DNA from: Synechococcus sp.
GTDB lineage: Bacteria; Cyanobacteriota; Cyanobacteriia; PCC-6307; Cyanobiaceae
NCBI GenBank assembly: GCA_047285535.1
Contig: JBJBDC010000001.1
Location: forward strand, 2,016,136-2,080,135
Reading direction: 5' to 3'
DNA length: 64,000 nucleotides
Translations under genes and position numbers: made by a program
The notes under the pieces: model-generated
Told to the model about the DNA's origin: nothing
Databases searched by the model: none
What the model saw: only the letters and a program-made list of their open reading frames with translations
In this document: positions 7,195-37,726 of the stretch, in pieces
Position numbering within the stretch: the stretch's first letter is position 1
Layout of the letters: each line of letters starts with the position of its first letter

Positions 7195-8448
7195 TCAAGT
7201 TGTGTAATCAGCGTTAATACGTACGTATTGATCTGAAAGGTCGCACCCCCAAGCGACGCCATGGCCTGGACCATCGCCAAGACAAAGACGAATGTGAACG
7301 GTGTCATCAACCAGATAACGACCGCAAGCACATTCGCTGAGGTACGCAGACACTGCAGCGCGATCAAATGGCACCGGCTCACCCAATGCCATCAACTGAT
7401 GAGGTCCAATCCAAAGAGCCACAGCATCCGAGGCAAAAGCCACCCCTGCTCGACCTGCAGCCGCCACAATTCTGCCCCAATTGGGATCGCGCCCATGCAC
7501 GGCTGTTTTCACCAGTGACGAACCAATAATTGTGCGAGCGATCTTGAGCGCCTCCATTTCTGAGCCTGTTCCCTCCACCTCCACCTCAATCAGGCAAGTG
7601 GCTCCCTCTCCATCCCTGGCGATAGCTCGGGCCAGGTGCTGTGCAACAAGGGTGACCCCTTGCTCGAGGAGCTCAAACTGATCGAGCGGCAAAGCCTTCC
7701 CCGCAGCGAAGGCCAGGAAGGTGTCATTCGTGCTGGTGTCGCCATCCACGGAGATGACATTGAAGGAACGCTGAACCACACGCTGGACCATGTCCTGCCA
7801 GGCCTCTGCTGGCATCCCTACATCACAGGTCAGGTAACCGAGCATGGTGGCCATATCGGGATGAATCATTCCCGACCCTTTGGCCATTCCGCCGATCCGC
7901 ACCCGGCGGCCTCCAAGGTGGGCCTCGAGAGCAATCTGCTTGTTGACGAGATCCGTGGTGAGGATGGCCTCTGCGGCCGCTCCGCCTCCCTGATCCGACA
8001 GTGAAGACACCAGAGGATCCACCGCTTCCAAGAGTTTGTCGATAACAATCGGCACTCCGATCACCCCGGTGGAACAGATCAATACCTGCTGCGCTGACAC
8101 GCCCAGGCGACTGGCCACAGCCTGCGTTACTTGAAGACTGTCGATCAGGCCCCGATCACCCGTGCAGGCATTGGCCTGGCCGGAATTCGTCACCACAGCC
8201 CGTGCATGGCCAGCACCAAGCTTCAACCGCTCGGCACAGAGATCAACACAGGCAGCTCGTACCACTGAAGTGGTGAAGGTCCCGGCACAGACCGAGCCCT
8301 CCGGCGCCAGCAGTAACGAAAGATCGGGCTTCCCGGAGGTCTTAAGCCCGACAGTGAGACCAGAGGCCTTAAATCCATCTGGTGCCGTGATTCCTCCCTG
8401 CACGGGAAGCCAGCTGGGGAAAGAGGATCCGCTGTTGGCCGCAATCAC
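7195..8448 (-). CDS. argJ: Bifunctional glutamate N-acetyltransferase / amino-acid acetyltransferase ArgJ (start uncertain: GTG 8448 or ATG 8490)
   Basis: NSGQANACTG, STGVIG, GMAKGSGMIHPDMATML, VDGDTSTND, DGEGAT, DPNWGR, INADYTT. Confidence 0.97.
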   Translation of the reverse strand: MIAANSGSSFPSWLPVQGGITAPDGFKASGLTVGLKTSGKPDLSLLLAPEGSVCAGTFTTSVVRAACVDLCAERLKLGAGHARAVVTNSGQANACTGDRGLIDSLQVTQAVASRLGVSAQQVLICSTGVIGVPIVIDKLLEAVDPLVSSLSDQGGGAAAEAILTTDLVNKQIALEAHLGGRRVRIGGMAKGSGMIHPDMATMLGYLTCDVGMPAEAWQDMVQRVVQRSFNVISVDGDTSTNDTFLAFAAGKALPLDQFELLEQGVTLVAQHLARAIARDGEGATCLIEVEVEGTGSEMEALKIARTIIGSSLVKTAVHGRDPNWGRIVAAAGRAGVAFASDAVALWIGPHQLMALGEPVPFDRAAVSAYLSECACGRYLVDDTVHIRLCLGDGPGHGVAWGCDLSDQYVRINADYTT

Positions 8449-8488
8449 GGGCGCACGGGAGACACTGGAACCATCCTGACGCCGTGCC

Positions 8489-9100
8489 ATGCCCCGCCAA
8501 CGCCGGATCGGCCTCACTGGCGGCATCGCCAGTGGCAAAAGCAGCGTGGGCGATTGGCTGGAGAAGAGGGGCCTTCCTGTGCTCGATGCCGATCAATTCG
8601 CCCGAGAAGCTCTAGCCCCAGGAAGTGAAGGCGCTCAGAGAGTTCTCAACCGTTACGGCGACAAGGTCCGGCTCCATGCATCCAAACCAGAAGACGCTTG
8701 CATCGACCGCGCTGTCCTGGGTCGGATCGTGTTCAGCGATGAGAGTGAGCGGCGATGGCTGGAACAGCTGGTGCACCCAATGGTCAGGAGAAGGTTCGAG
8801 CAGGAGCTGGCCTCCCTAGCTGAGGCACCGGTGGTAGTGCTGATGATCCCGCTGCTCTTTGAAGCGGGCCTGGAGGCGATTTGCAACGAGGTTTGGGTGG
8901 TGCACTGCTCATTGGCTCAACAGAAACGACGGCTCATGACCAGGAACCATCTAGGAGCCAAAGAAGCCGAGCAGCGGATTCATGCTCAATGGTGTCTCAA
9001 ACAAAAATGCCAACGTGCAGACCAGGTCATCAATAACACGGGCACTCCTGGCGCCTGGCAGCAACAGGTTGCATCACTGATTGACATCAGAAACCTCTAA
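8489..9100 (+). CDS. coaE: Dephospho-CoA kinase
   Basis: IGLTGGIASGKS P-loop, VLDAD, LVHP, IPLLFE, ADQVINN. Confidence 0.97.
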   Translation: MPRQRRIGLTGGIASGKSSVGDWLEKRGLPVLDADQFAREALAPGSEGAQRVLNRYGDKVRLHASKPEDACIDRAVLGRIVFSDESERRWLEQLVHPMVRRRFEQELASLAEAPVVVLMIPLLFEAGLEAICNEVWVVHCSLAQQKRRLMTRNHLGAKEAEQRIHAQWCLKQKCQRADQVINNTGTPGAWQQQVASLIDIRNL

Positions 9101-9226
9101 TCAACCACCAATTTCGACATCTCTGAACACACGCAATTATAGGCCTTTCGTCAATCAAGACGTCGGGAATTATCAATACTTGAACCAAATCCACCAGGAA
9201 ACGCTCGCATGGACAACCAATGATCA

Positions 9227-9262
9227 AAAGACAAAATAAAAGCTGGCCGATATGGCCAGCTT
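9227..9262 (-). terminator. Probable intrinsic terminator of the tandem-repeat gene
   Basis: Hairpin aagctggcc-gatat-ggccagctt followed on the minus strand by a T-rich tract. Confidence 0.6.
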
Positions 9263-9284
9263 CAGCGAAATTCAATGATCGCTC

Positions 9285-10127
9285 TCACTTAGCCCAAACG
9301 CCATTAAACCGTACACCTTTTGAAGAATTAAACCCTTCAACATATGCCGGCTGAAGATTGTTAGCAATAATGCCATCAAAAACTTGCTGATACTGACCGC
9401 TTGGGACACCATGCCTGGCCTGCCAGCTTGAATTGACCCCAGGCCTTTTAGTGAAAATAGCAACATAGCGATCTTGCCCACCTTTACGATAACCACTCAC
9501 GACCTTCACTCGATAGCCCTTCTTTGAAGCCTTGTTGAATAGCTGTTGATACTTCACAGAAGTCATATCATGCCTCGTAAAAGATCCTGATACACCTTTC
9601 TGGAAAATCGCAGCAAAACGTGGCAAGCTTCCTACAGTGAAAGCACTTACATGCACAGGCCTAAATCCTTGCTTAGCATAAACTTTTTTTTGATTCAGAT
9701 ATTGAGACTCTGTTAATCCATGGCGAGCAATATAGGCAGGCCCCGAGGACTTTTCCCAAATTGCAGCGTAATATGGCTGATTTCCGACTGAATAACCATT
9801 CACGTAGGTGAGACGATAGCCCTTTTGAGTTAGATCATTGAATACGGATTGATACTGGTTAGGCGTTAACCCATGACGAGCCTGGAAGGGTTTGCAATTA
9901 TCTTTACTCCAAACACCTGTATAACGAGCCCTATTCCCTTGCTGGTAGCCAGAAACCGACTTCAGGCAGTATCCACTATTCACAAAGTCATCAAAAGACT
10001 GTTGATACTGCACACTTGACAAGCCATGCCTTGCAACCCATTGGCCCGCAGAAGATGGCAGAGCCGAAGAACAGAGAAGGCCCGTGGCAATGAAGAAACC
10101 CAGTGCGGTAGTTTTTTGAACAGTCAT
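9285..10127 (-). CDS. Secreted protein made of five ~50-aa bacterial tandem repeats (polyglycine-hydrolase-like/BTRD1-type)
   Basis: Five repeats of type W/F-x-ARHGL-x3-YQ-x2-F...GY..x.V.GY...Y.(A/G)(I/V)W; signal peptide MTVQKTTALGFFIATGLLCSSALPSSA. Confidence 0.85.
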   Translation of the reverse strand: MTVQKTTALGFFIATGLLCSSALPSSAGQWVARHGLSSVQYQQSFDDFVNSGYCLKSVSGYQQGNRARYTGVWSKDNCKPFQARHGLTPNQYQSVFNDLTQKGYRLTYVNGYSVGNQPYYAAIWEKSSGPAYIARHGLTESQYLNQKKVYAKQGFRPVHVSAFTVGSLPRFAAIFQKGVSGSFTRHDMTSVKYQQLFNKASKKGYRVKVVSGYRKGGQDRYVAIFTKRPGVNSSWQARHGVPSGQYQQVFDGIIANNLQPAYVEGFNSSKGVRFNGVWAK

Positions 10128-10253
10128 CTTGCTACCCCTAGATGAGCAATCGTTCAGATTCAAAGATGTAGAAGTCATCGTTTTTTGATGTGAAGAGCAC
10201 GTCAGAAAAAGATTCCTGACATCCACACCATTGCCTTTCTAAATGAAGGTCCT

Positions 10254-10291
10254 GGTGATTGAACTCAATGCGATCTGTGATCTTTCACACA
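10254..10291. promoter_or_regulatory. Two tandem CRP-like boxes upstream of the tandem-repeat gene
   Basis: GGTGA-ttgaac-TCAAT (10254-10269) and TGTGA-tctttc-ACACA (10276-10291), versus consensus TGTGA-N6-TCACA. Confidence 0.5.
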
Positions 10292-10393
10292 AATTGCGAT
10301 CACTAAACGCTCAACAGGCCAGAGCTTCGAACAACCTAAGTGTCGCGTCAGCCATGTCTAATGCGGAGATCTGATTGAGATTTCGCAACCGTC

Positions 10394-10740
10394 CGGCATG
10401 CAATTGCGCTACCACCAAAGGGCACAAGACCTTTGCAATGAAAAAGAAAAGACAGAACACCAAGACATAAGTTGCTGCCCTTAGCCAAGCTAGTTGAGCA
10501 ATAATCAATCGAATCAACCAGCCCAATGGTTTAAACCAGCTTGAAAGATTCCTTACAGGATGGTCCACCCGCCGCAAAGAGAGAGATGACGGCCATCCAA
10601 ACCAAGGCATTGATTGATTCCTCTGTTGTGACTGCGAAACCAGAACGAAACGATTGACCATGACTAATCGGAATGCCATTTGATCGCATGATCAAAAAAC
10701 AATCAAAAAGGCATCACGTTTGATCAGGCCTGACCAAGCT
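10394..10740 (+). pseudogene. Possible older, heavily eroded coaE remnant
   Basis: Colinear CoaE-like fragments across frameshifts: RHAIALPPKG (cf. REALAPGSEG), AAL/AKLV, QW/NQL, MVHP, LIPLL, DC..KRL.M..RN. Confidence 0.4.
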
Positions 10741-10805
10741 TCACCACCCAAGGTGAGTTCAATCCTCCTCCTGGCAAAACTGTCAAGACTCCAGGACAAG
10801 GACTG

Positions 10806-11385
10806 CAACGGCGCATCGGACTAACCGGTGGGATCTCTAGTGGCAAAAACAGCGTGGGGCGCCACCTCTACGAACGAGGAATCGCAGTACTCGACGCCGA
10901 TCTCTATGCCCATCAAGCCCTAGCCCCCGGTACCAATGGAGCAGATTCTGTGATCTAGCGCTACTCAACACGGGATCAGAACACAGCCGACGCTCATAGC
11001 GATACAACAACCAGCCCAGGCTGCATCAACCAAAAGGCTCTGGGAAGTTTCGTGTTCAATGAACAGCGCGAGCGTCTTTGGCTCGAGAGACTTATCCATC
11101 CGCAAATGCGTGCAAACTTTGAGTAAGCACTCACAAAGCACGTCAATTCAGAAACTGTTGCCTTGACGATTCGCTTCTGTTCAAAGCCGGACTCAGGGAC
11201 CTTTGCACCGCGAACTGGGTGGTCTATGCAGCCCAGCTCCAGCAACGGGACAAACTGGATGAAGCTGCCACAAGGGCTCGCATCCAGTCCCAATGGCACT
11301 GAAGCAAAAATGTCAAATCACAGACTTCTTAGTTAACAACTGAGAAGGATCTGGCTGCTGGAACAAGCAACTTAAAACGTTGGCC
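10806..11385 (+). pseudogene. coaE: Near full-length degenerate coaE copy
   Basis: QRRIGLTGGISSGKNSVG...VLDADLYAHQALAPG...VI*RY...WLERLIHP...FE*...RIQSQW/LKQKCQITDFLVNN*...W; in-frame stops at 10956 and 11124 plus frameshifts. Confidence 0.92.
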
Positions 11386-11683
11386 AAAACCAAAAAAGTA
11401 ATAAGTAAAGGCTTTTTTCAAAAGAACACATGCACAGATCAGACAAGTCGATCAAGACGAACCACGTGACTCTTCACTCCACAAACAACTCACAAACCCT
11501 CAAGAACACAAACAGAAACACCAACATTCCGCATGGCCTCTCCCAAGCCAGGGACAATCTCACAACCAAGATTAATCCAAGTCACAACATGGCAACGCAC
11601 CCAAGGGAAAACTAAGTGCACTGGACAAGCCACCTTGGCAAACCAGAGCTCAACCATTGAAATCCACTCACTCTGGAAACCTC

Positions 11684-13522
11684 ATGAACAACCAACAGAA
11701 CCTCAAAACCGCCCGCACACTGATCGCAGGCGGTCTTCTCGCCAGCAGCTTGATCGCTGGAGTCAACCCAGCACATGCTGACGTCTCACAAAGCAACATC
11801 CAATCACTGAATCCAAGACAACAGAAATACAACCGATGTCCAAAGGATGCTGATTGCTACATCCTCAGCACACGCATCATCTCAGGCCAAGTCGCTGATC
11901 CAAGCGAGCTAAGCGGTGACGAAAACTACATTCTTCCAATCTGGTCAATCATTGACGGCATGGGCGTTGATGTGCACCCCCTTGCCACTGACTCCGACGA
12001 CTTCTTCAGAGTCAATATCGCCAAAAAAACCATTGGCAACATGGGAAGGCGGTTTAACCAACGCAGAACAAGCAACACAATCAAGCTGAAAACTGGACAG
12101 CCAGGAGCTTACAAACTACACCTCAATAAAGACTTTGTAGTCCCAATGTCACGCGACAAGTGGACGACCGATGGACTCATTTTTTCCGTCAACATGATGG
12201 AGCATGACAACAGCAAACGCTCCGACATTGACAGGGAATACCTTAAAAGTGCTAGACGAGTTCAAAATGGGCTACTCCGCAACGCCCAAAACGTACGGGT
12301 TGGGATGAGATCACCAACGTATTATTCAGATGCCGCAAAAGCCACTTACAAGTTCACAAAAGAAGCGGCACCCATGGCAGCCAAGGCCTACGCCGCGTAT
12401 CAAACCGGTGGAGCCGCCTCTGCCGCAGGAACTGTTGACATCAGCTCCCTACCAGGTCTATTCAAAGGCTTATGGAACGGATTGAAAAGGCTCGACAGAG
12501 ATGATGTAGGCCATCAAAAAACTGTCTACATCCCCTTCAATTCACTCCGCAACGGCGTCGAGAAAGTAAAGAAAATCTGCGGCAAAACAGATCCAGGAGC
12601 GGCCAATACAGGGAAATTTTGCATTAAAATTGGTGTCAAATTAGATCTTCATTCTCGTAAAAGTACGGCCTCCGCATTCGACAAAAAGATTGATTCTGGC
12701 ACTGGTGGAAGCAACACGGGGACCAATCCCAATCAAAACACCAAATACAAACTTGCCGGAACTTGGAAAGCCAATGACGGCGGCACCTACAAAATTACGC
12801 AATCTGGAAACCGCATTTACTGGAAAGGGAAAGGTGGCAACTTCATCAACAAATTCTCAGGTGTCATCTCCGGTCGAACCATCACCGGCAAATGGCGAGA
12901 CACTGCTTCGAGCCAAACCCAAAATCGCGGGACGCTAAAGCTGCGCATCGATAACTCAAAAAAACTGACACGCATCGGCAGAACTGGGCCTTTCACTGGC
13001 TCTGTCTGGAAGCGAGTCACAGGCAGCACAGGCAGCACAGGCAGCACGAGTCAACTCAAAGAAGATTGCCTAGCCTTCAATCCCAGAGCACTTTCAATTC
13101 GTAACCAAGGCGGGTCAGGAGGATGGACCATCACTCAAGGCAGCCGTCTTCTCTTCGCATTTGGAGATAAAAAAGCTAACGCCAAAGAAGCGCTGAAACT
13201 AATCAAGGGTTACGGCTTCAACCAATCCTGCTTTGTTGGCCGTCCTGGCCCCTCCATGAGATATCTCAAAAAAGGGACATCAGTACCCAATATTTCCAAT
13301 TCAGCGATCAAGCCGCGAGATTGCATCAACATTAACAACCGAAACTTAAGTCTTAGAAAAAGAGGAGCGAATTGGGCACTCACTGACGGGCGCTCAATCC
13401 CGCTGTCTTCTCGAAGCAAAGCTGAAATGGTTCAAGCCAAGGGAATCATCAAAAAATACGGCCTCTCCAAGCAATGCTTTGTCGGCCGCCCAAACCCACC
13501 CTTCGCTTTTTGGCTCCGCTGA
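11684..13522 (+). CDS. Large secreted multidomain hypothetical protein
   Basis: Signal peptide MNNQQNLKTARTLIAGGLLASSLIAGVNPAHA; GTW..NDGG beta-rich module; TGS linker; two C-terminal repeats DC(L/I)..N.R.LS.R...W..T.G...IK.YG..(Q)CFVGRP. Confidence 0.85.
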   Translation: MNNQQNLKTARTLIAGGLLASSLIAGVNPAHADVSQSNIQSLNPRQQKYNRCPKDADCYILSTRIISGQVADPSELSGDENYILPIWSIIDGMGVDVHPLATDSDDFFRVNIAKKTIGNMGRRFNQRRTSNTIKLKTGQPGAYKLHLNKDFVVPMSRDKWTTDGLIFSVNMMEHDNSKRSDIDREYLKSARRVQNGLLRNAQNVRVGMRSPTYYSDAAKATYKFTKEAAPMAAKAYAAYQTGGAASAAGTVDISSLPGLFKGLWNGLKRLDRDDVGHQKTVYIPFNSLRNGVEKVKKICGKTDPGAANTGKFCIKIGVKLDLHSRKSTASAFDKKIDSGTGGSNTGTNPNQNTKYKLAGTWKANDGGTYKITQSGNRIYWKGKGGNFINKFSGVISGRTITGKWRDTASSQTQNRGTLKLRIDNSKKLTRIGRTGPFTGSVWKRVTGSTGSTGSTSQLKEDCLAFNPRALSIRNQGGSGGWTITQGSRLLFAFGDKKANAKEALKLIKGYGFNQSCFVGRPGPSMRYLKKGTSVPNISNSAIKPRDCININNRNLSLRKRGANWALTDGRSIPLSSRSKAEMVQAKGIIKKYGLSKQCFVGRPNPPFAFWLR

Positions 13523-13556
13523 TCTGGCAGGCAACACAACACCACTCATCAACACT

Positions 13557-13584
13557 GCCTCCGTCACAACGGGGGCTTTTTCTT
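13557..13584 (+). terminator. Intrinsic terminator (repeated at 14243-14270 and 14929-14956)
   Basis: gcctccgt-caca-acgggggc-tttttctt. Confidence 0.8.
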
Positions 13585-13641
13585 GTCTGATCCCCACGCT
13601 GCCTTGCTCAAAGCCATTGCACTGGAATCACTCTCAACACC

Positions 13642-13657
13642 TGTGACCAATCTCACA
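13642..13657. promoter_or_regulatory. Perfect CRP-type box (repeated at 14328-14343 and 15014-15029)
   Basis: TGTGA-ccaatc-TCACA about 100 bp upstream of the ATG. Confidence 0.7.
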
Positions 13658-13755
13658 AACCCCTGAGACACACCTCATCAAGTCCACTGCCGATTGAGGC
13701 GATCTTGAGTTCATCGGCGGCGCTCACCGCCCTCCACTCCTCACACTCAAATACC

Positions 13756-14208
13756 ATGAATCGCTCTCTATCCCTTCTCTCCGCATTCGCCCTCTCGTCT
13801 GCTGCTCTGCTCTCTTTTCAACCTCAAGAGGCGAAGGCGATGAACATCGCCTTCGATTGCTTTGAACGGAGCAGCGAAAAACTCATCGCACGCAGTGCGG
13901 TCGATATGACCAGCACCGCCATCAGCTGCCTCCCCGTTCCAGGCACAACCCTCACCGATGCTTCCAGCATCGATTCAGGCGACGGAGTCATTCTCGCTAA
14001 TCACACCACCACAGAAGAAGATACCTACTTTGATGAGGACGTTGCCCACGAAAATACCTATGAAGACGATGGAGGTGCCTATGAAGACGATGGAGGTGCC
14101 TATGAAGACGATGGAGATGAACGCTCCACAGGCTCAAAACTGGGGTCAGCCGTCGGAGAACACCTCGGCAAACTCTTAGGACAGGGGATTAGTGATCTCT
14201 TCCGCTGA
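13756..14208 (+). CDS. Secreted acidic 150-aa protein with C-terminal glycine zipper, copy 1
   Basis: Signal peptide ending ...QEAKA; Cys-pair domain; YEDDGGA repeats; GSKLGSAVGEHLGKLLG. Confidence 0.8.
   Translation: MNRSLSLLSAFALSSAALLSFQPQEAKAMNIAFDCFERSSEKLIARSAVDMTSTAISCLPVPGTTLTDASSIDSGDGVILANHTTTEEDTYFDEDVAHENTYEDDGGAYEDDGGAYEDDGDERSTGSKLGSAVGEHLGKLLGQGISDLFR
14057..14116 (+). repeat. 21-bp coding minisatellite (cctatgaagacgatggaggtg, ~3 copies), present in each 686-bp unit
   Basis: Encodes YEDDGGA-YEDDGGA-YEDDG. Confidence 0.9.
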
Positions 14209-14441
14209 TCTGGCAGGCAACACAACACCACTCATCAACACTGCCTCCGTCACAACGGGGGCTTTTTCTTGTCTGATCCCCACGCTGCCTTGCTCAAAGC
14301 CATTGCACTGGAATCACTCTCAACACCTGTGACCAATCTCACAAACCCCTGAGACACACCTCATCAAGTCCACTGCCGATTGAGGCGATCTTGAGTTCAT
14401 CGGCGGCGCTCACCGCCCTCCACTCCTCACACTCAAATACC

Positions 14442-14894
14442 ATGAATCGCTCTCTATCCCTTCTCTCCGCATTCGCCCTCTCGTCTGCTGCTCTGCTCTC
14501 TTTTCAACCTCAAGAGGCGAAGGCGATGAACATCGCCTTCGATTGCTTTGAACGGAGCAGCGAAAAACTCATCGCACGCAGTGCGGTCGATATGACCAGC
14601 ACCGCCATCAGCTGCCTCCCCGTTCCAGGCACAACCCTCACCGATGCTTCCAGCATCGATTCAGGCGACGGAGTCATTCTCGCTAATCACACCACCACAG
14701 AAGAAGATACCTACTTTGATGAGGACGTTGCCCACGAAAATACCTATGAAGACGATGGAGGTGCCTATGAAGACGATGGAGGTGCCTATGAAGACGATGG
14801 AGATGAACGCTCCACAGGCTCAAAACTGGGGTCAGCCGTCGGAGAACACCTCGGCAAACTCTTAGGACAGGGGATTAGTGATCTCTTCCGCTGA
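14442..14894 (+). CDS. Secreted acidic glycine-zipper protein, copy 2
   Basis: Translation identical to copy 1. Confidence 0.8.
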   Translation: MNRSLSLLSAFALSSAALLSFQPQEAKAMNIAFDCFERSSEKLIARSAVDMTSTAISCLPVPGTTLTDASSIDSGDGVILANHTTTEEDTYFDEDVAHENTYEDDGGAYEDDGGAYEDDGDERSTGSKLGSAVGEHLGKLLGQGISDLFR

Positions 14895-15127
14895 TCTGGC
14901 AGGCAACACAACACCACTCATCAACACTGCCTCCGTCACAACGGGGGCTTTTTCTTGTCTGATCCCCACGCTGCCTTGCTCAAAGCCATTGCACTGGAAT
15001 CACTCTCAACACCTGTGACCAATCTCACAAACCCCTGAGACACACCTCATCAAGTCCACTGCCGATTGAGGCGATCTTGAGTTCATCGGCGGCGCTCACC
15101 GCCCTCCACTCCTCACACTCAAATACC

Positions 15128-15580
15128 ATGAATCGCTCTCTATCCCTTCTCTCCGCATTCGCCCTCTCGTCTGCTGCTCTGCTCTCTTTTCAACCTCAAG
15201 AGGCGAAGGCGATGAACATCGCCTTCGATTGCTTTGAACGGAGCAGCGAAAAACTCATCGCACGCAGTGCGGTCGATATGACCAGCACCGCCATCAGCTG
15301 CCTCCCCGTTCCAGGCACAACCCTCACCGATGCTTCCAGCATCGATTCAGGCGACGGAGTCATTCTCGCTAATCACACCACCACAGAAGAAGATACCTAC
15401 TTTGATGAGGACGTTGCCCACGAAAATACCTATGAAGACGATGGAGGTGCCTATGAAGACGATGGAGGTGCCTATGAAGACGATGGAGATGAACGCTCCA
15501 CAGGCTCAAAACTGGGGTCAGCCGTCGGAGAACACCTCGGCAAACTCTTAGGACAGGGGATTAGTGATCTCTTCCGCTGA
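15128..15580 (+). CDS. Secreted acidic glycine-zipper protein, copy 3
   Basis: Translation identical to copy 1. Confidence 0.8.
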   Translation: MNRSLSLLSAFALSSAALLSFQPQEAKAMNIAFDCFERSSEKLIARSAVDMTSTAISCLPVPGTTLTDASSIDSGDGVILANHTTTEEDTYFDEDVAHENTYEDDGGAYEDDGGAYEDDGDERSTGSKLGSAVGEHLGKLLGQGISDLFR

Positions 15581-15773
15581 TCCTCAAAACCCCGACACAC
15601 CCTCCGCGTAGAAGCAACACTTCCGCCCTTCTCTCCAAATCAACACAGAAAGCAGGGCCTCCACAGTGCTGAAAGAGCCAACCAACAACGGCCTCGTCGC
15701 ATAGCGACACAACACCCTTCCATCGTCTTAGGCCTTTTCAGAATAAAACTGAAGGTCGTTGATGATTCAAGGC

Positions 15774-16373
15774 ATGCGCATAGTCCACCCAAGCGCTGCG
15801 GCACTAATCCTCCTAGCCAGCAGCACAGTCACATTCACGCCAAAAGTCGAAGCCAACGCCTTTCGATGCTTCGATCGCCAAACCGGCCAGCTGATCGCAG
15901 TCAGCGACAAAGACATCACCACTATCAGCGTGAGCTGTCTTCCCAACGGCGGAATCAAGACCCCTCCCCGTAGGGAAAGCGACTCAGATCCCGGAAAGTT
16001 ACCACCAAGCAGAGGTTCTACAGTCAGCGAAGACTGGGCCTATGAGGATGAGGATGATTCCGGCTCTGAGCAGTCTCTCCAGTCTCCATCGGACACAAAA
16101 GTTGATCCATTGGCTGCCCGACGGGCCATCAACTTGGCTCGCGGAACTGCCGTATCAATCAATGGTGGACTGAGTCAATACCGCCCTAGTACTTGCATGT
16201 TTGCCAGCGCCATGGGCAACCCCTGCATCACTCGCTCTGATTCACAAGGCATTGTTTTCACGATTCCCGGTGGTCCTCCAGGCTGGGAACAAAACGATGA
16301 AGAGCCAAGCGTGGTCACCGTGGTAGTTATTGCACTAGACGGCCGCTCTGTCCTGGAAGCAAGTAACAACTGA
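15774..16373 (+). CDS. Secreted hypothetical protein, partial paralogue of the triplicated gene
   Basis: Signal peptide ...KVEA; AFRCFDRQTGQLIA...SVSCLP matches AFDCFERSSEKLIA...AISCLP; distinct C-terminal domain (AINLARG..NGGLSQYRP..CMF...GGPPGW). Confidence 0.8.
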   Translation: MRIVHPSAAALILLASSTVTFTPKVEANAFRCFDRQTGQLIAVSDKDITTISVSCLPNGGIKTPPRRESDSDPGKLPPSRGSTVSEDWAYEDEDDSGSEQSLQSPSDTKVDPLAARRAINLARGTAVSINGGLSQYRPSTCMFASAMGNPCITRSDSQGIVFTIPGGPPGWEQNDEEPSVVTVVVIALDGRSVLEASNN

Positions 16374-16381
16374 ACGAGTTT

Positions 16382-16605
16382 TTACCCTTTCAACTTTTGT
16401 CACAGAATCTGATTGGCCAATTGGGATCAGCCTTTCCACCAGTTTTCTTCATCAGTTGATCCACAAACAAGCCCTGCTGTTTGTTTTTCCACCAGGAATG
16501 CCTCAACTTCATCAGGATGGGGAGCCAGAAGCTCTTCCAAGATCACCTTCGGGGAGCCCCCCTCTCAAGAAGTTCAGGAAGTATCCCCTGTACGATCTTG
16601 CCGCC
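16382..16605 (-). pseudogene. gatB: Degenerate copy of the gatB 3' end
   Basis: Aligns by eye to gatB 18435-~18716 (agaatctgattggccaat, ttttcttcatcag, tcatcaggatggg, ggggagcccccc, gatcttgccgc) with frameshifts and a ~57-bp internal deletion; stop codon retained at 16382-16384. Confidence 0.9.
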
Positions 16606-16799
16606 ATGACAATCATATTTATCACAAGACCTTGAATTAGAGCACTTCAACTGGACAGGGCCTAGGCCAGGAGACGCAAACGAATGGCCCAAAAAGTTAA
16701 CATCAAGGAGAAAAACATTTAAACCCTAAAACCTAATAAGACACGTTCCATATCCAAGACAAAATTACAGTCTACGAACGATATATTCTTTCGTGACAC

Positions 16800-18335
16800 C
16801 TAATCATTGAGCCCCATCTCTGCACGAAACCATTTCGTAATCACCCATTTGCTGCCAGCTTCTACAGGCATCGATTCATGTAGCGTAAATGGATTAGGAG
16901 TCCCATCTGCCTGAAGATTGTTCCATGCCAAAGCCAGCCCTTTCACGGGTGTAAAACAACGACCCAAATCCTTAAAGCAGGTCTCTCCACCGCGTTCAAC
17001 GGCATTGAGATAGACCATCACGGTCCAAGTTCTCTGACCGCCCTTCGTACTGTGTTCTTCAAATTCCTTTGAGTGAGGTGCGAACCAATCCGTATGTTCC
17101 TTGAAATATTCACCAGGGTCATAACGCTGACCCTGAATCGGTTCAGAGAGTCGAGGATCCACACCTAGGAGCGCAGCAAAGCGTCGATCAAGCTCCTCTG
17201 CCAACGCAGCATGTCTTTGGCGCAAATGGCATGTCCGGCTCGTCCGGTAATCGCTGGACCCACGGGTCACGGTGGAAGGCTGCAGTCCCTGATCGATCGC
17301 CCCAATCACGCGCTGGCATTCCTCCCAGCCCAGAAAATCAGGGATCTCATAGATCTGCGCCAACGGTGTATCCAGCTTCCAGGCCCTCGGTCGATGCTGT
17401 GGGAAGGTGAGCGGAACCTGGAACCACTGCAACATTGATGGATGGTCCGTGTTTGCACTCTTTGCCTGCATGGGAACCAGCCGCATCTCGAGTCGAGCCT
17501 CCGCTGGTGGAAGCTCCGACACAGGACTAAACGCTTGAGCGGTTGACACTGAATTCAACACCGCTTCAAGGGAATCTCGCGCGAAACCATGGGCCATCGC
17601 CCGTTCAATAATGCCTTCGCGATCACATCCACGCTCACGATTCAGGATCAACCATTCACGCCACGTTTCCGGAATTAAAGCAATTTTTTTCAAGGCTTGA
17701 TTGCTCAAACAAGCCATTTCAACACTGGAGAACTTGCTCTCTAACTGTTGATATGGAGCTGGATCCCAATCCTTGGGACGCCAATGAAAGTACATATTGC
17801 GATAAAACTCGCCTTCAAATTCAGATGCACGACCATGGGGGCAAAGGCTTTCATAAAAAAGCATGGATCCCGGCTCGAATAACACCCGATGATGAACAGC
17901 TTCGTGATCAATGAAATCCAAGGGCCAGGGCTGATTGGACTGATCAGCCACATGAACAATGCAGCTCACCACGTGGGTATCCACCCGATCGCGATGCATA
18001 TGCAACCAAGACCCAGGTCCATAACTACGAACGCCATAGCCCCAGCTTCGCTCGAGCGGCTGCCCAACCCATTGCTCCATCAAGGGGGTCAACTGGTCAT
18101 AGGCCAGTGTCATTAACTCCGCAGACATCGGCGAATAGCGCAGATCCGGTGTTTTGGATCGCACGGATGAAATTCCCGAAATCACCTCGGCTTCGAAAGA
18201 CGGATCCAACCGGGCGTCTTCCTCCACCGGTTCAAATGACATCGCCTTGTACTCATCCTCCAGAGCGTTTTGCAGGCACTGTGGAGTTGCCAGCAACCGA
18301 AAGGGAGCTGATGCGAAGCGGGGGAGTAGAACCAT
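16800..18335 (-). CDS. Tandem two-domain 2OG-Fe(II) oxygenase (C-terminal prolyl 4-hydroxylase-like domain)
   Basis: Domain 1 HRD...HGR; domain 2 RTSRT, Y.PGEYFKEHTD, RTWTVMVYLN...GGET.F, LHESMPV...KW. Confidence 0.88.
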   Translation of the reverse strand: MVLLPRFASAPFRLLATPQCLQNALEDEYKAMSFEPVEEDARLDPSFEAEVISGISSVRSKTPDLRYSPMSAELMTLAYDQLTPLMEQWVGQPLERSWGYGVRSYGPGSWLHMHRDRVDTHVVSCIVHVADQSNQPWPLDFIDHEAVHHRVLFEPGSMLFYESLCPHGRASEFEGEFYRNMYFHWRPKDWDPAPYQQLESKFSSVEMACLSNQALKKIALIPETWREWLILNRERGCDREGIIERAMAHGFARDSLEAVLNSVSTAQAFSPVSELPPAEARLEMRLVPMQAKSANTDHPSMLQWFQVPLTFPQHRPRAWKLDTPLAQIYEIPDFLGWEECQRVIGAIDQGLQPSTVTRGSSDYRTSRTCHLRQRHAALAEELDRRFAALLGVDPRLSEPIQGQRYDPGEYFKEHTDWFAPHSKEFEEHSTKGGQRTWTVMVYLNAVERGGETCFKDLGRCFTPVKGLALAWNNLQADGTPNPFTLHESMPVEAGSKWVITKWFRAEMGLND

Positions 18336-18434
18336 TCAGGCTGAGGTAGGACTCAACAAAATCTCAAACTAGAGGAAGTTCAGATCTAAAACCCCCAAAA
18401 TAATTTGATTATCAACAACGCAGCCCAACAAGTC

Positions 18435-19919
18435 TCAGCCTTTGAGCTTCTGACTGAGAATCTGATTGGCCAATTTGGGGTCAGCCTTACCACCGGTTTT
18501 CTTCATCAGCTGACCCACAAAGAAGCCCTGCAATTTGTTTTTTCCGCCACGAAAAGCTTCGACCTCATCAGGATGGGCGGCAAGAAGCTCTTCAACGATC
18601 GCAGTGATCGCTGCCGGATCACTGATCATCCCGAGTCCACGTTCATCCACAATCGCCTTGGGGGAGCCCCCCTTCTCAAGGAGCTCGGGGAGGATCTCCT
18701 TCGCGATCTTGCCGCTGATCTTGCCCCCATCAATCAGCTTGATCATCTCTGCAAGCTGTTCAGGGCGAAAGGCCAATTCAGCAAAGTTCAGGCGATTGCT
18801 ATTCACATAAGCAGCAATATCACCCGTAATCCAATTGGCCGAAAGCTTGGGGTCTGCACCGGCTTCCACAACAGATTCAAAATATTGCGCCATGGAGCGC
18901 TCATCCGTGAGAACGCGAGCGTCGTACTGCGATAAACCAAACGAATCGGCATAGCGATGACGCTTGGCAGACGGCAGCTCTGGCAACTCACTTCGCCAGG
19001 CATCACGCTGATCAGCACTCACCTCAATCGGACCCAGATCCGGATCGGGGAAATAGCGGTAATCGCTGGCACCTTCCTTGCTACGCATGCTCTTGGTGAG
19101 CTGCTTGCCTTCGTCCCAAAGACGCGTTTCCTGAACGATCGGTTCACCGGTTTCGTAGGCCTTGATCTGACGCTGAATCTCGTATTCGCAAGCCTTTTGA
19201 ATGGCCGAAAACGAGTTCATATTCTTGATCTCCACCTTCGTACCAAAGGGAGCATCGGGGCCACGACGAACCGAGATGTTCACGTCACAGCGCAAGGATC
19301 CCTCTTGCATATTTCCATCGCTCACGCCCAGATAGCGCATGATCCTGCGAATTTCAGATGCATATTCGGCGGCTTCCCGTCCGGTACGTAAATCTGGCTT
19401 GCTGACAATTTCTGCCAAAGCCACACCAGCCCGGTTGTAGTCCACCAGCGAGTGAGTGGAACCTGCCAAGCGATCACTGCCGGCATGCACCAACTTGCCT
19501 GCATCTTCTTCCATATGCAGACGCTCGATTCCTATTTTTTTGAGATAAGAGTCTTTTCCTTTCTCCGCAACTTCAACCTCGATCCAGCCGTCTTCGGCAA
19601 TTGGCTCATCGAATTGAGAAATTTGATAGTTCTTGGGCAAATCTGGATAGAAGTACTGCTTGCGATCGAATTTGCTGTGCTCAGCAATGTTCAGATTCAG
19701 AGCCATCGCTGCTTTCACGGCGTACTCGAGCACTTTTTGATTCAGAACAGGAAGCGTTCCTGGAAGGCCGCACACCACAGGGTCGATATGGGTGTTGGGG
19801 TCATCCCCAAAAGCGGTGGAGGCAGCTGTAAAAATTTTGCTGTTGGTACCCAACTGAACATGGGTCTCCAAGCCAATCACGGCTTCCCAGGCCAGTTGCG
19901 TTGCTACAGGTGCTGCCAT
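18435..19919 (-). CDS. gatB: Asp/Glu-tRNA amidotransferase subunit B
   Basis: VIGLETHVQL, FDRKQYFYPDLPKNYQISQ, HMEEDAGK, RCDVNIS, YRYFPDPDL, FFVGQLMK. Confidence 0.99.
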   Translation of the reverse strand: MAAPVATQLAWEAVIGLETHVQLGTNSKIFTAASTAFGDDPNTHIDPVVCGLPGTLPVLNQKVLEYAVKAAMALNLNIAEHSKFDRKQYFYPDLPKNYQISQFDEPIAEDGWIEVEVAEKGKDSYLKKIGIERLHMEEDAGKLVHAGSDRLAGSTHSLVDYNRAGVALAEIVSKPDLRTGREAAEYASEIRRIMRYLGVSDGNMQEGSLRCDVNISVRRGPDAPFGTKVEIKNMNSFSAIQKACEYEIQRQIKAYETGEPIVQETRLWDEGKQLTKSMRSKEGASDYRYFPDPDLGPIEVSADQRDAWRSELPELPSAKRHRYADSFGLSQYDARVLTDERSMAQYFESVVEAGADPKLSANWITGDIAAYVNSNRLNFAELAFRPEQLAEMIKLIDGGKISGKIAKEILPELLEKGGSPKAIVDERGLGMISDPAAITAIVEELLAAHPDEVEAFRGGKNKLQGFFVGQLMKKTGGKADPKLANQILSQKLKG

Positions 19920-20107: not shown

Positions 20108-21742
20108 ATGTATTTCGACTGCCCTGCACCAATCCCCATCGAAAGAACTGAAAGGGCAGACTATGACCGGAACAACATTAAAGGAATAACTGTATTTGGC
20201 GACAGTATGAGCGACTTTGGCTCAAGATCTGCCGCCATGTACAAACAGGTTCTCTATCCCAACTCCCATCCTGGTTGGAGCGGCACTACGTTCAACCATT
20301 CGAACAACAACTGGCAAACCTTTTTGCGTCAATCCTTGGACGAATCCGACCAAGATCATTCGCGTCAAGACATTACAAACAGCTTGATTGGTGGGCCCCC
20401 AAGCCCGATCAAAGCAAACGACCTCAACTCTTCATATGCCCTGGGTGGTGCCTTGACCGGCCGCAATACGATCTTTGATGTATTGCATTCTCTTGGACAA
20501 TTCCCTCCAGAACTCCTTAACCCTCCTTATGCAGTCGGCAAACTAGGAATACGCTCACAGATTGAGCACTTTGTTCAAAGTGATCCCCACGACCTCTCAG
20601 CTCAGCTCACGGTGATCTGGGGCGGAGGAAATGACATCTTGGCGACGGTCTTACAGCAACAGGAGCTCAGCACTGGTTTTGGGCAGATTCTGAACAACAG
20701 CAGAGCCAATCTGATCGCTTTACTGCGCAAAAGCAATGCAAAAACCGTCTTGATCTCCAGCGGTGCTCCGATCATCGGCACCGTCGACGGAGTGCGCTAT
20801 ACCCTGCCCTACCTAAGAGATCTTCCACAAAGTTGGCAGGAACAAATTCAATCTGGTGCCGCCTCCGTCCTACACGCTCAAACCGAAAAAATAGCAGATG
20901 CCGTGACAAAAATGTTCCCTTATGCAACGATCATTCCTTTCAATAATGAATACGAATACAACTGGGAGCGTTTTGGCGACAAACTTGGAAACTTCAAAAA
21001 ATACGGCATCATCAATACCAAAGATCCTGCGCAAGAAGAAGCTCAGCTAGATCAGAAAGACGGAATCCTGTACAACACGCCTCCCCTCACCAAAAGGAAT
21101 CACCCAATCCAGGGGAAGCGGAGCGAGGATGGTTTTCTCTATTTCGACTCACTGCACCCAACAGAGTCCGGACACAAAATGCTCGCCAAAGCCATCGAAC
21201 TAACACTCGAAGAGCATCAATCAGCAATCAAATCATCACTGACGCAAACAGTAATCACCACACAAAATTCATTCTGCATTGGAACATCAGGCCATGATTT
21301 CATCACTTCATCCACCCATGGCAGCATTCTTCAGGGTGTAGAAGGGAATGACATTCTTCAAGGCCAAGCTGGAGATGACTACCTTCAAGGTGGACTTGGC
21401 AATGACAAACTTGATGGAAAAGGAGGCAGCAATCGCCTGAAAGGGGGACCTGGTGCTGACGTCTTTGTCATTGGCCTCAAAGGGCTGATCGATGGCCCGC
21501 AAATCATTGAAGACTTCAACAGTGAGGAGGGAGACAGAATTTTGCTTTCAACTGCTCTAAGTGAACTGATGGGCGATCCTTTTCTTCTTCCCACCCCTGC
21601 AAAGTGGGACAACGCCATTCAAATCAGGCGCACCAAAGAAGGGAACCTTAAGCTTGAGATCGCGCTGAGTCCAATCAGCACAAGCCCAGGAGTTGTGATC
21701 CTGAACAACATCAAGACCTTGGATTTCAATGCTCTGTCCTGA
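20108..21742 (+). CDS. SGNH/GDSL hydrolase with RTX Ca-binding repeats (probable type I secretion substrate)
   Basis: VFGDSMSD, WGGGND, FDSLHP catalytic blocks; nonapeptides GVEGNDILQ, GQAGDDYLQ, GGLGNDKLD, GGPGADVF; IEDFNSEEGDRI. Confidence 0.88.
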   Translation: MYFDCPAPIPIERTERADYDRNNIKGITVFGDSMSDFGSRSAAMYKQVLYPNSHPGWSGTTFNHSNNNWQTFLRQSLDESDQDHSRQDITNSLIGGPPSPIKANDLNSSYALGGALTGRNTIFDVLHSLGQFPPELLNPPYAVGKLGIRSQIEHFVQSDPHDLSAQLTVIWGGGNDILATVLQQQELSTGFGQILNNSRANLIALLRKSNAKTVLISSGAPIIGTVDGVRYTLPYLRDLPQSWQEQIQSGAASVLHAQTEKIADAVTKMFPYATIIPFNNEYEYNWERFGDKLGNFKKYGIINTKDPAQEEAQLDQKDGILYNTPPLTKRNHPIQGKRSEDGFLYFDSLHPTESGHKMLAKAIELTLEEHQSAIKSSLTQTVITTQNSFCIGTSGHDFITSSTHGSILQGVEGNDILQGQAGDDYLQGGLGNDKLDGKGGSNRLKGGPGADVFVIGLKGLIDGPQIIEDFNSEEGDRILLSTALSELMGDPFLLPTPAKWDNAIQIRRTKEGNLKLEIALSPISTSPGVVILNNIKTLDFNALS

Positions 21743-37400: not shown

Positions 37401-37722
37401 CATCCAACATTGCCGTATCTGCAGAGGTTTCCGGGTACAAATACAAATTTATCGAACTAGAACCTGGGGTTGAACTTGATGTCAAGTAATCCACGCCAGG
37501 AGTATCGGAGAGCAAATTCTCTAACGGATCAGTAACTGATTTCTCAACAATATTGGCATTTCCACCCTGATAAGTAGCATTAACTTGTATCTGAGGTTGC
37601 GAAACATCAGGCACAAATTCAATTGGCAGCGTTTGATAAACAACCAGTCCAGCAATAAAAATTGCAAGACTGCAAACACTCGTGAGAACGGGTCTTTTTA
37701 TAAAGGGATCGGCAAATGACAT
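34453..37722 (-). CDS. RND efflux permease (HAE1/AcrB-like)
   Basis: FIKRPV, GLVVDDAILVVE, ALTFSPMM, LIGLAAKNAILVVEFA, RLRPILMTS; visibly AT-rich. Confidence 0.95.
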   Translation of the reverse strand: MSFADPFIKRPVLTSVCSLAIFIAGLVVYQTLPIEFVPDVSQPQIQVNATYQGGNANIVEKSVTDPLENLLSDTPGVDYLTSSSTPGSSSINLYLYPETSADTAMLDAQNRIQKGIRMLPQTTQDMGVTVTQSSDTALSGYMITSDQGQYNSVYLATLVEDNLKKQLQVINGIGTVTIYPGDSRFQLFLDPDLLKAYDLTIDDIDKQIRSQNSPSSAGNVGAPYITDDASYSYPVLVKDGGYVQTVEEFENLAVKTAPSGALIRVKDIGTVKYISDPSQSLRTLDGYPASYININQKSGSNAVQVSQDIEQVINNFKEVAPPGIRVVNMQDQKSFILESIQNVTDALGLAVILVLVTLVLFLKKWRTVLIPALAIPVAIVGTFLFLGLFDFSLNFLTLTGLVLATGLVVDDAILVVESVSKNIEAGMPPKQAAFSTMNELSGAVFSTSLVLITMFLPVTLVASSVGQIYQQFAVTIIFAIAISTFNALTFSPMMAGLILLPGDQKTASKWITGIGGLIVGSLFGMFTRANFGNLIVPIAIASFGLVGFYLNKVFQAFESVYAALEKRFAGLVGYLIQKYRVVTACLVPAFILTIFLFNSTPTGLIPQEDMKQLFGFMQLASGASLPATAKVAAQASSILKQDKQSKDSAIKDAIVVAGSGNRPEQMNVFVSLKDLKERPKKSQGADAQARSLGAKLFPLPTAIPPIFFQPPMINVAQDSSITMLLVDKSNKRYTFEELLEFAQRIRDSAQKDPSIASINILFSPDAPAYELVIDRSKLSSLGVDFDKAMTTLADLAGGFRASQTSIPGGVRDVRIISDSMGRREIKDLLNYSVQSNNGNMVKIRQFADAELISAPPSIDHFQFDRSVKFSIKAAPGFSQGQVISRLQDVFAENNFKELGIQFDGLARTQLQSGGQILFLFSLAGLAVFLILSANYESYITSTTILLTVPLAILGSLVFVKMRSMDLNIFSQVGLLMLIGLAAKNAILVVEFADQRMADGLGAAKAALEAAKSRLRPILMTSIASLAGFFPLVVARNAGANAQQSIGTVVFGGLLVGTILSLGVVPSVYVFIKSLEARLSKEPPPVKPEV

Positions 37723-37726
37723 CAGA

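Follow-up and report, generated by a model that had tools for sequence, protein, structure and literature searches.

Dead copies of coaE and gatB nested within an integrase-free variable interval of a Synechococcus genome

The present work deals with the interval between the genes coaE and gatB in a 64,000-nt stretch of DNA from a Synechococcus-like picocyanobacterium (the whole stretch, whose GC content is 53.6%, is referred to below as the window). The interval (positions 9101-18434; 9.3 kb) is bounded exactly by the stop codons of coaE, the gene for dephospho-CoA kinase, and of gatB, and besides its cargo genes it contains a dead copy of coaE (psi-coaE) and the dead 3' end of a gatB gene (psi-gatB), in the nested order intact coaE, psi-coaE, psi-gatB and intact gatB. 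The explanation that we favour, and to which we give somewhat better than an even chance, is that the interval grew by one-sided additions which displaced the native alleles of coaE and gatB inward. Island hotspots in bacteria mostly lack mobility genes, and it is chiefly from statistics that one has inferred how they gain genes instead of just exchanging them. A prime example is provided by the marine picocyanobacteria, whose pangenomes are huge although few mechanisms of transfer are known in them.

The two dead core-gene copies

When the interval was searched by tblastn with the resident CoaE and GatB proteins, one remnant of each gene was found (E 1e-33 and 5e-8, respectively); the other searches for remnants employed a CoaE profile hidden Markov model (HMM), run on all six frames of positions 9050-18450, and a blastn comparison of the 64 kb with itself. 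For psi-coaE the similarity to the resident CoaE is divided among three high-scoring segment pairs in three reading frames (10806-11171, 11174-11296 and 11299-11382), which together span amino acids (aa) 4-197 of the 203, with identities of 38-48%, and whose summed E value is the one given above. The dead copy covers aa ~1-197 of 203 and is disrupted by two or more frameshifts and two or more in-frame stops, and the similarity to coaE of relatives begins at ~10797, as judged by blastn and tblastx with the regions upstream of coaE from eight relatives. At the nucleotide level psi-coaE is ~54% identical to any intact coaE, a value to be read against the mutual identity of the intact coaE genes of relatives, which is itself only ~61%. 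Its best match in the protein database (P0001) is 57% identical, versus 47.5% for the resident CoaE.

The other remnant, psi-gatB, corresponds to aa ~403-495 of GatB and is 82.7% identical over 162 nt to positions 18439-18600 of the intact gene (E 3e-38); a stretch of 54 nt is deleted from it and several indels of 1-2 nt shift its frame, and the similarity to gatB stops abruptly at ~16604. The intact gatB has an ordinary GatB_Yqey C-terminus, and its protein is 86-93% identical to those of Synechococcus and Cyanobium relatives. The 3' end of this gene and psi-gatB flank, as direct repeats, the gene for a 2-oxoglutarate (2OG)-Fe(II) oxygenase, which lies 99 nt downstream of gatB and is co-oriented with it; the repeats are 82% identical, with a longest identical core of at most ~15 nt. 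In the self-comparison of the window, psi-coaE and psi-gatB with their intact counterparts were the only pairs in which a diverged copy of a gene located elsewhere was seen, the remaining off-diagonal matches being due to the internal repeat of one gene, to two adjacent flavoprotein paralogues and to a 686-bp tandem array within the interval.

The original prediction for this DNA had envisaged a stack of four cassette compartments separated by three eroded core-gene copies, each oriented like its intact parent. The orientation was correctly read (psi-coaE lies on the plus strand and psi-gatB on the minus strand), and psi-coaE and the 3' remnant of gatB are real. However, the third remnant, an older copy of coaE which had been placed in the spacer 10227-10796, was not detected in 9101-10805 by tblastn, by the six-frame CoaE HMM, or by blastn and tblastx with the sequences from eight relatives; psi-coaE is the sole match of the HMM in 9050-18450, the best score elsewhere having an E value of 4.5. 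The interval accordingly consists of three compartments with two remnants between them. In the spacer 10227-10796 no similarity to CoaE, GatB or ArgJ was found by HMM, tblastn or tblastx. An apparent match to aa 1-13 of ArgJ at 10846-10808 proved to be the opposite strand of the 5' region of coaE, which argJ overlaps in the intact locus. Upstream of 10797 no similarity to argJ was seen, and as the N-terminus of ArgJ is poorly conserved a decayed piece of it could escape detection.

The absence of tRNA, integrase and transposase genes, which had likewise been predicted, is borne out over the whole 64 kb. No tRNA or transfer-messenger RNA (tmRNA) gene was found in the window by ARAGORN and no Rfam family matched it at the gathering score, while the Pfam search detected no integrase, resolvase or transposase domain in the 45 open reading frames (ORFs) examined, viz. 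9 in the island and 36 others with 110 aa or more in the window, nor in any of 41 reading frames (30 aa or longer) taken from the spacers. Similarly, no integrase domain of the integron type (intI) was present, and a repeat search (attC models were not run) showed no imperfect inverted repeat recurring between the cassettes.

The locus in relatives and the ancestry of coaE

For comparison, the 80 gatB loci listed were used, 14 of which are picocyanobacterial, and the statements about other loci refer to this set. In 12 of the 14 picocyanobacterial loci gatB and coaE are neighbours, and in 10 of the 14 argJ adjoins coaE. The gap between gatB and coaE measures 11-38 bp in six loci (L005, L043 and four of Prochlorococcus) and 0.2-4.5 kb in six others, where it is filled with unrelated cargo, e.g. 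a Cu/Zn superoxide dismutase gene in L006, a Na/H exchanger and an alanine symporter in L007, and gltS, a CHASE2 cyclase and a FecR-like gene in a metagenome-assembled Synechococcus genome (L001). The 9.3 kb found here is the largest of these gaps. Because the gap runs from 11 bp to 9.3 kb despite the conserved order gatB-coaE-argJ, the coaE-gatB interval is a genuine variable spot that lacks an integrase and is enclosed by core genes which are conserved; this part of the prediction holds, with the flanks conserved as neighbours in 12 of the 14 loci, with differing cargo or none between them, and with no mobility genes in the window.

Variation next to these core genes is also seen outside the interval. 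In the freshwater locus L043, where gatB and coaE are 11 bp apart, a 2.8-kb insert (12057-14873), which encodes either a 944-aa cyclic-nucleotide (cNMP)-binding protein or an overlapping ORF of 1110 aa, separates coaE from argJ, so that the variation extends to the coaE/argJ junction as well. Beyond gatB in the window, away from the interval, a gene (20108-21742; GC 0.484) whose 544-aa product is a GDSL lipase bearing RTX calcium-binding repeats lies between gatB and a DAO-type oxidase gene. The oxidase gene starts ~120-300 nt from gatB in at least 8 picocyanobacterial relatives, and a homologue of the lipase is present in 0 of the 80 loci. The lipase gene is a second insertion beside gatB, and the self-blastn comparison revealed no core-gene remnant accompanying it.

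The cargo of the interval is in part linked to the same core genes elsewhere. A homologue of the 2OG oxygenase gene directly follows gatB in L003 (57% identity) and in L004 (64% by tblastn, and 77% over the C-terminal 209 aa by tblastx), the version in L004 being a 268-aa gene for the C-terminal domain alone. In Synechococcus sp. MIT S9451 (L002) a gene resembling the 204-aa cargo gene of the window (p204) stands tail-to-tail with the intact gatB, just as p204 stands here with respect to psi-gatB. Hence this cargo is not unlinked to gatB in other genomes, as would be expected from a simple local duplication. Furthermore, the interval of L001 (11486-16033) contains, in this order, gatB, a co-oriented gltS (Na+/glutamate symporter), a gatB remnant, a convergent CHASE2 adenylate/guanylate cyclase gene, the FecR-like gene and coaE. 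The remnant of L001 (13154-13237; ~90 nt) comprises the last 28 codons of gatB, starting at codon ~467, and no psi-coaE is present in this locus; it is therefore evident that single-sided additions occur in this lineage. In both L001 and the window the similarity to gatB ends at most ~17 nt past its stop codon. Inspection of the alignment by eye revealed no motif common to the inner junctions of the two loci, and no integrase was found among the three large ORFs scanned in the L001 interval.

The two coaE copies differ in their relationships. The GatB of the window is 93% and 92% identical to those of L001 and L002, respectively. In its core proteins away from the island the window is nearest to L001 and then to L002, as indicated by SpeA (85%, versus at most 76% for others), the ABC1 kinase (87% and 84%, versus 73%) and enolase (94% and 90%, versus 85%); in a large protein database the ABC1 kinase is 84% identical to those of MIT S9451 and UW105, 81% to WH 8103 and 78% to CC9902. 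The intact CoaE, however, is only 52% identical to that of L001 and 58% to that of L002, which is no closer than to distant lineages (59-61%), and its database matches consist of a single cluster at 96% (P0121) followed by a next best match at 67%. In the careful CoaE tree of 45 rows, psi-coaE is part of a 10-row clade with L001, L002 and P0001-6 (support 94/93), and the intact CoaE lies outside of it. In a larger, quick tree of 59 rows the intact CoaE groups with named Synechococcus, Cyanobium and Vulcanococcus proteins in a 43-row clade, with a Shimodaira-Hasegawa-like approximate likelihood ratio (SH-aLRT) support of 95, which excludes psi-coaE, L001 and L002. When the two copies were constrained to form one clade, the log likelihood (lnL) changed by -19.3 and the approximately unbiased (AU) test gave p 0.045; when the intact CoaE was forced into the clade of psi-coaE, L001 and L002, a group chosen after the tree had been seen, the values were -18.2 and p 0.018. 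Because the intact CoaE disagrees with the nearest relatives of the genome while psi-coaE joins them, it looks, with moderate support from these sequence comparisons, as if the coaE proper to the lineage is the pseudogene and the functional gene has been imported. For coaE this agrees with the predicted displacement of an old copy, since the resident gene is not the parent of psi-coaE by the first of these tests and it is the intact copy which is discordant.

Growth of the interval and alternative explanations

Because the nested order of the copies, the linkages of the cargo and the one-sided structure of L001 all fit with it, we infer that two separate one-sided additions have occurred. According to this explanation, core flanks together with their cargo would move as alleles between relatives through the homology of the flanking housekeeping genes, and the inner block, viz. 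psi-coaE, the 621-aa gene (p621), the three copies of a 167-aa gene (p167), p204 and psi-gatB, would be the older allele typical of the lineage. If a fragment carrying a foreign coaE and the BTRD1-repeat gene became joined on the left via or beyond coaE/argJ and ended beside the start of the old coaE, then the old coaE would come to lie to the right of the new cargo, as psi-coaE does. If, on the right, the join of a fragment with a gatB 3' end and the 2OG oxygenase gene fell within gatB and the fragment stopped near codon 403 of the earlier gene, then the last part of the old gatB would be left where psi-gatB is found, and the spacer 16605-16799 would be the junction of this right-hand addition. 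Each event would have doubled a core segment, of which the copy linked to the chromosome remained under selection and the inner, stranded copy decayed. Two routes may be considered, viz. (a) linear DNA with a homologous crossover on the outer side and an illegitimate join on the inner side, or (b) a circle bearing a segment of the core gene and cargo, which would be integrated by a single homologous crossover. The predicted entry of relatives' DNA on one side thus finds support in the discordant intact coaE, the linked cargo and the parallel in L001, and it loses the third remnant on which it also drew.

A number of observations weigh against this explanation. The gatB remnant is nearest to the gatB of its own genome (81.6% nucleotide identity, versus 78.9% for L002 and 74.0% for L001 among the listed relatives, whose gatB genes are 75-85% identical over the same 3' stretch), which fits a local duplication equally well; the expectation that the remnants would stand apart from the resident genes in phylogeny is realised for psi-coaE, and for psi-gatB the pairwise identities lie too near to one another to tell the possible origins apart. 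CoaE evolves fast and the backbone of its tree is poorly resolved, with support below 80% for 19 of the 42 inner branches and an unsettled bootstrap, and psi-coaE sits on a long branch; the p-values of the AU tests are marginal and one of the groups tested was post hoc. Sliding-window comparisons of gatB (nucleotide identity, 9 relatives) and of ArgJ (protein identity, 6 relatives) showed no clear recombination breakpoint. The junctions are too decayed for a microhomology to be read from them. Remnants of gatB are rare, since in searches of each locus with its own GatB (75 of them having at least 500 nt downstream) one was found in 1 of the 80 loci, namely L001; no homologue of the BTRD1-repeat gene occurs in the 80 loci and consequently none beside coaE; and the 14 picocyanobacterial loci form a small base for comparison.

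The affinity of psi-gatB could also mean that segments with coaE and with the 3' end of gatB were copied within this genome without any transfer, the spare copies decaying and the cargo arriving by unrelated insertions. The locus is capable of tandem duplication, as is shown by its perfect array of three 686-bp units with 10 bp of microhomology. However, this course of events appears very improbable, as the AU test speaks against a clade of psi-coaE and the resident coaE, psi-coaE is nearer to other lineages (P0001) than to the resident gene, the cargo adjoining each copy accompanies the same core gene elsewhere, and the compartments differ in their GC content (0.446 to 0.545). An origin in a single event, in which a block like that of MIT S9451, reaching from the start of coaE to about codon 403 of gatB, was put into a resident coaE-BTRD1-2OG-gatB locus by illegitimate joining at both ends, is more economical, and in this case the pseudogenes would be the immigrants. 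That psi-coaE and p204 are best matched within the L001/L002 lineage is in accordance with it, and the adjacency of gatB and the 2OG gene, which is seen in three lineages, could be old. Yet L001 and L002 are the nearest listed relatives of the window, which makes the inner block look native and the intact coaE discordant; end homologies of ~600 bp and ~280 bp would be expected to lead to replacement of the interval rather than to landing inside it; and the remnant of L001 is one-sided. We consider a single insertion of this kind unlikely.

A duplicated 3' end of the target gene is further a signature of site-specific integrative elements, and elements of this kind (tycheposon-like, or moved by an integrase encoded elsewhere) could target the 3' end of gatB and supply a new one in its place, their integrase having since been lost and the displaced end representing an att-like (attachment-site) repeat. 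In accordance with this, a single co-oriented gene (the 2OG gene here and gltS in L001) lies between gatB and the remnant in both loci, and the similarity ends within ~17 nt of the stop codon. On the other hand, no integrase or remnant of one is present in the window, and no integrase in the three large ORFs scanned in L001, and there is no tRNA gene; the two remnants have unlike inner boundaries (codon ~403 in the window versus ~467 in L001); no identical core longer than ~15 nt is seen; a whole-gene copy such as psi-coaE is unlike an att duplication; and among the loci compared a remnant occurs in that of L001 alone. On balance such integration is improbable. It is also doubtful, though worth stating, that in picocyanobacteria cassettes of a single gene are added to the gatB 3' end and to coaE by an as yet unrecognised process that is independent of a recombinase or acts in trans, each cassette bringing a fresh end of the core gene. 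If this were true, the hotspot would be an ordered stack in which fossils of housekeeping genes record the order of acquisition, and the presence of different cargo in two sister lineages (the window and L001) would indicate targeting rather than chance.

Returning to the one-sided additions, the nesting would order the inner block before the outer cassettes, and to this extent a chronological record, as had been proposed, is retained. However, as the third remnant is absent and the level of decay is uninformative, the record goes no further. The different decay of psi-coaE and psi-gatB should not be interpreted as a clock, because coaE evolves much faster than gatB (relatives with GatB proteins of 86-93% identity have CoaE proteins of 52-61%) and the displaced copies may already have been divergent at the start.

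Cargo genes, known systems and significance

The features of the interval and its flanks are listed in Table 1. The leftmost cargo gene, which had been drawn on the plus strand in the original prediction, lies on the minus strand and encodes five BTRD1 repeats; its protein has a putative signal peptide, as read from the N-terminus, and its GC content of 0.446, versus 0.536 for the whole window, fits with a recent arrival. The gene predicted to be present in three copies of 150 aa is indeed present three times, the size being wrong, since the ORFs are of 167 aa and 100% identical in a perfect array. The array has the 10-bp sequence TCCGCTGATC at both of its ends, which arises because p621 and p167 are alike at their 3' termini, and together with the identity of its units this suggests a very recent microhomology-mediated amplification; a collapse or expansion of the array in assembly is possible. 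The p167 protein is an acidic-repeat protein whose N-terminal part is 33% identical to the N-terminal domain of p204 (E 5e-11), the two genes being paralogous. The C-terminal 96 aa of p204 are 50% identical (E 5e-35) to the 278-aa protein of L002 whose gene is tail-to-tail with gatB. An AlphaFold model of p204 made without an alignment was unusable (predicted local distance difference test, pLDDT, 35.7).

The p621 protein, which is apparently secreted, consists of an N-terminal portion of ~350 aa with few relatives and a C-terminal pair of ~75-aa repeats containing cysteine (aa ~460-620). A HMMER search of 1.84 billion representatives gave 2043 matches at E<=1e-3 and 883 at E<=1e-10, mostly to the C-terminal repeats, which recur in proteins of many lengths. 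Because these repeats recur broadly and belong to no Pfam or NCBIfam family, they appear to represent a widespread unnamed domain. No match to p621 was seen in phage genomes, and an atlas search yielded a single lead (0.82). Two candidate relationships were discarded: a 624-aa protein of L001 was unrelated to p621 on comparison, and a 210-aa protein of L002 matched p167 with an E value of 7.7, for which reason weak tblastx matches to the p167 unit were also dropped. Neither p621, p167 and p204 nor the 122-aa ORF (orf122) of the left spacer has a Pfam, NCBIfam or PADLOC family, and in the same three collections no toxin or immunity family was found for the cargo. The 2OG oxygenase is 48.7% identical over aa 2-190 to the 2OG-Fe(II) oxygenase of Synechococcus phage S-SCSM1, and its C-terminal half is 34-46% identical to oxygenases of unrelated phages. 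In a promoter scan, promoter-like sites were rarer than in shuffled sequence.

Table 1. Features of the coaE-gatB interval and of its immediate flanks (positions in the window)
Feature	Position	Strand	Evidence and remarks
argJ	7195..8538	-	Pfam ArgJ 8e-134; conserved left flank; overlap of its 5' end with that of coaE, on opposite strands
Intact coaE (dephospho-CoA kinase)	8489..9100	+	Pfam CoaE 2e-53
Candidate terminator-like hairpin between the convergent coaE and BTRD1 genes	9239..9263	.	Consensus scan: 10-bp stem, 6 GC pairs, T-run; pattern match only
BTRD1-repeat gene, 313 aa, outer-left cargo	9285..10226	-	Pfam PF17660, 3e-85, 5 repeats (polyglycine-hydrolase-like structural)
570-bp spacer with 122-aa ORF (10311-10679, -) without family	10227..10796	.	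No Pfam family in frames
psi-coaE, near full-length dead copy	10797..11382	+	tblastn, HMM, in-frame stops
621-aa gene (p621), inner cargo	11657..13522	+	Modular protein; no Pfam, NCBIfam or PADLOC family
Perfect tandem array, 686 bp x 3.01	13515..15582	+	Three 167-aa ORFs (p167): 13705-14208, 14391-14894, 15077-15580
204-aa gene (p204), inner cargo	15759..16373	+	Tail-to-tail with psi-gatB
psi-gatB 3' end (last ~93 codons and ~15 nt past the stop codon)	16382..16604	-	tblastn, blastn; Pfam GatB_Yqey 4.8e-4 on one frame
Spacer, 2OG oxygenase stop codon to psi-gatB inner boundary	16605..16799	.	No Pfam family in frames
2OG-Fe(II) oxygenase gene, 511 aa, outer-right cargo	16800..18335	-	Pfam PF13640 1.6e-16; domain in C-terminal half
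Intact gatB	18435..19919	-	Pfam GatB_N and GatB_Yqey; conserved right flank; 3' ~280 nt are the counterpart of psi-gatB

Elsewhere in the window, a segment at 34453-38896 encoding an AcrB-type pump and an HlyD-type fusion protein (GC 0.42-0.43; GC at third codon positions, GC3, 0.35-0.37) is flanked by a Coq4-like gene and alaS with a GC content of 0.545, and it was probably acquired. A 752-aa ORF without family (23859-26117) contains internal tandem repeats of ~381 bp, which are ~66% identical as nucleotides and 53% as translated.

Processes of displacement and accretion have been described in other systems. For rhs genes a displacement of C-terminal regions through homologous recombination with circular intermediates is proposed in the account of Jackson 2009 (PMC2935791), and for the effector-immunity arrays of Vibrio cholerae's type VI secretion system (T6SS) a homology-facilitated illegitimate recombination is proposed in that of Kirchberger 2017 (PMC5361080). 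As these accounts describe it, an incoming piece homologous to the conserved 5' part of a gene brings a new 3' end together with downstream genes, and the old ones are pushed along and decay, so that ordered stacks arise, no integrase being involved; in these respects the present interval is alike. The arrangement that characterises such arrays, viz. an intact gene followed by co-oriented 3' copies with their own downstream genes, is seen here in the succession of gatB, the 2OG gene, psi-gatB and the p204 block, and in parallel in L001. However, the anchors here are the housekeeping genes gatB and coaE, whose protein function is unchanged and to which no toxin-immunity logic in favour of retaining the displaced part applies; one of the remnants is a whole gene and not a tip; there is one displaced copy per side; and the remnants are 82% (gatB) and ~54% (coaE) identical at the nucleotide level, whereas the Rhs core fragments, in the description given, range from ~92% identity at the protein level to nearly identical (PMC2935791).

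In islands of Prochlorococcus, stacked elements separated by partial tRNA copies are described (bioRxiv 10.1101/2020.12.28.424599), and the tycheposon islands of Prochlorococcus and Synechococcus resemble the present interval in having, by the descriptions in that work and in Grebert 2022 (PMC8995045), a fixed site, partial target copies between the elements, and older elements that are pushed inward and degrade. They differ in that, as they are described there, tyrosine or serine recombinases act on tRNA and tmRNA targets, whereas in the window there is no recombinase or remnant of one and no tRNA gene, the targets are protein-coding and one of the duplicates is a whole gene. Lastly, many hotspots without integrase in 80 bacterial species are described whose renewal proceeds through homologous recombination in the core genes at their sides (Oliveira 2017, PMC5635113). 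A variable spot with conserved core flanks and no mobility genes is common to those hotspots, as that account presents them, and to ours, and their incongruent flanking gene may have its counterpart in the intact coaE; however, in the model put forward there a double crossover replaces the cargo without trace (PMC5635113), whereas here the exchange was apparently one-sided, cargo was added and core fossils were left behind. Displacement and accretion as a process are thus known already from Rhs, T6SS and att-based systems, and what is new is their probable occurrence with housekeeping flanks in a picocyanobacterium, which is not a new kind of system.

The present base consists of one locus and one relative. 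Based on it, the displaced copies of housekeeping genes, which are still readable, would provide direct evidence, event by event, that homology in the core flanks can add cargo and not just replace it. The nesting of the copies yields a relative order of the acquisitions, and the intact core gene beside an island may itself be an import. If this pattern should prove to be common at other hotspots, then pseudogenes of the flanking genes could serve as marks of island growth that proceeds without an integrase.

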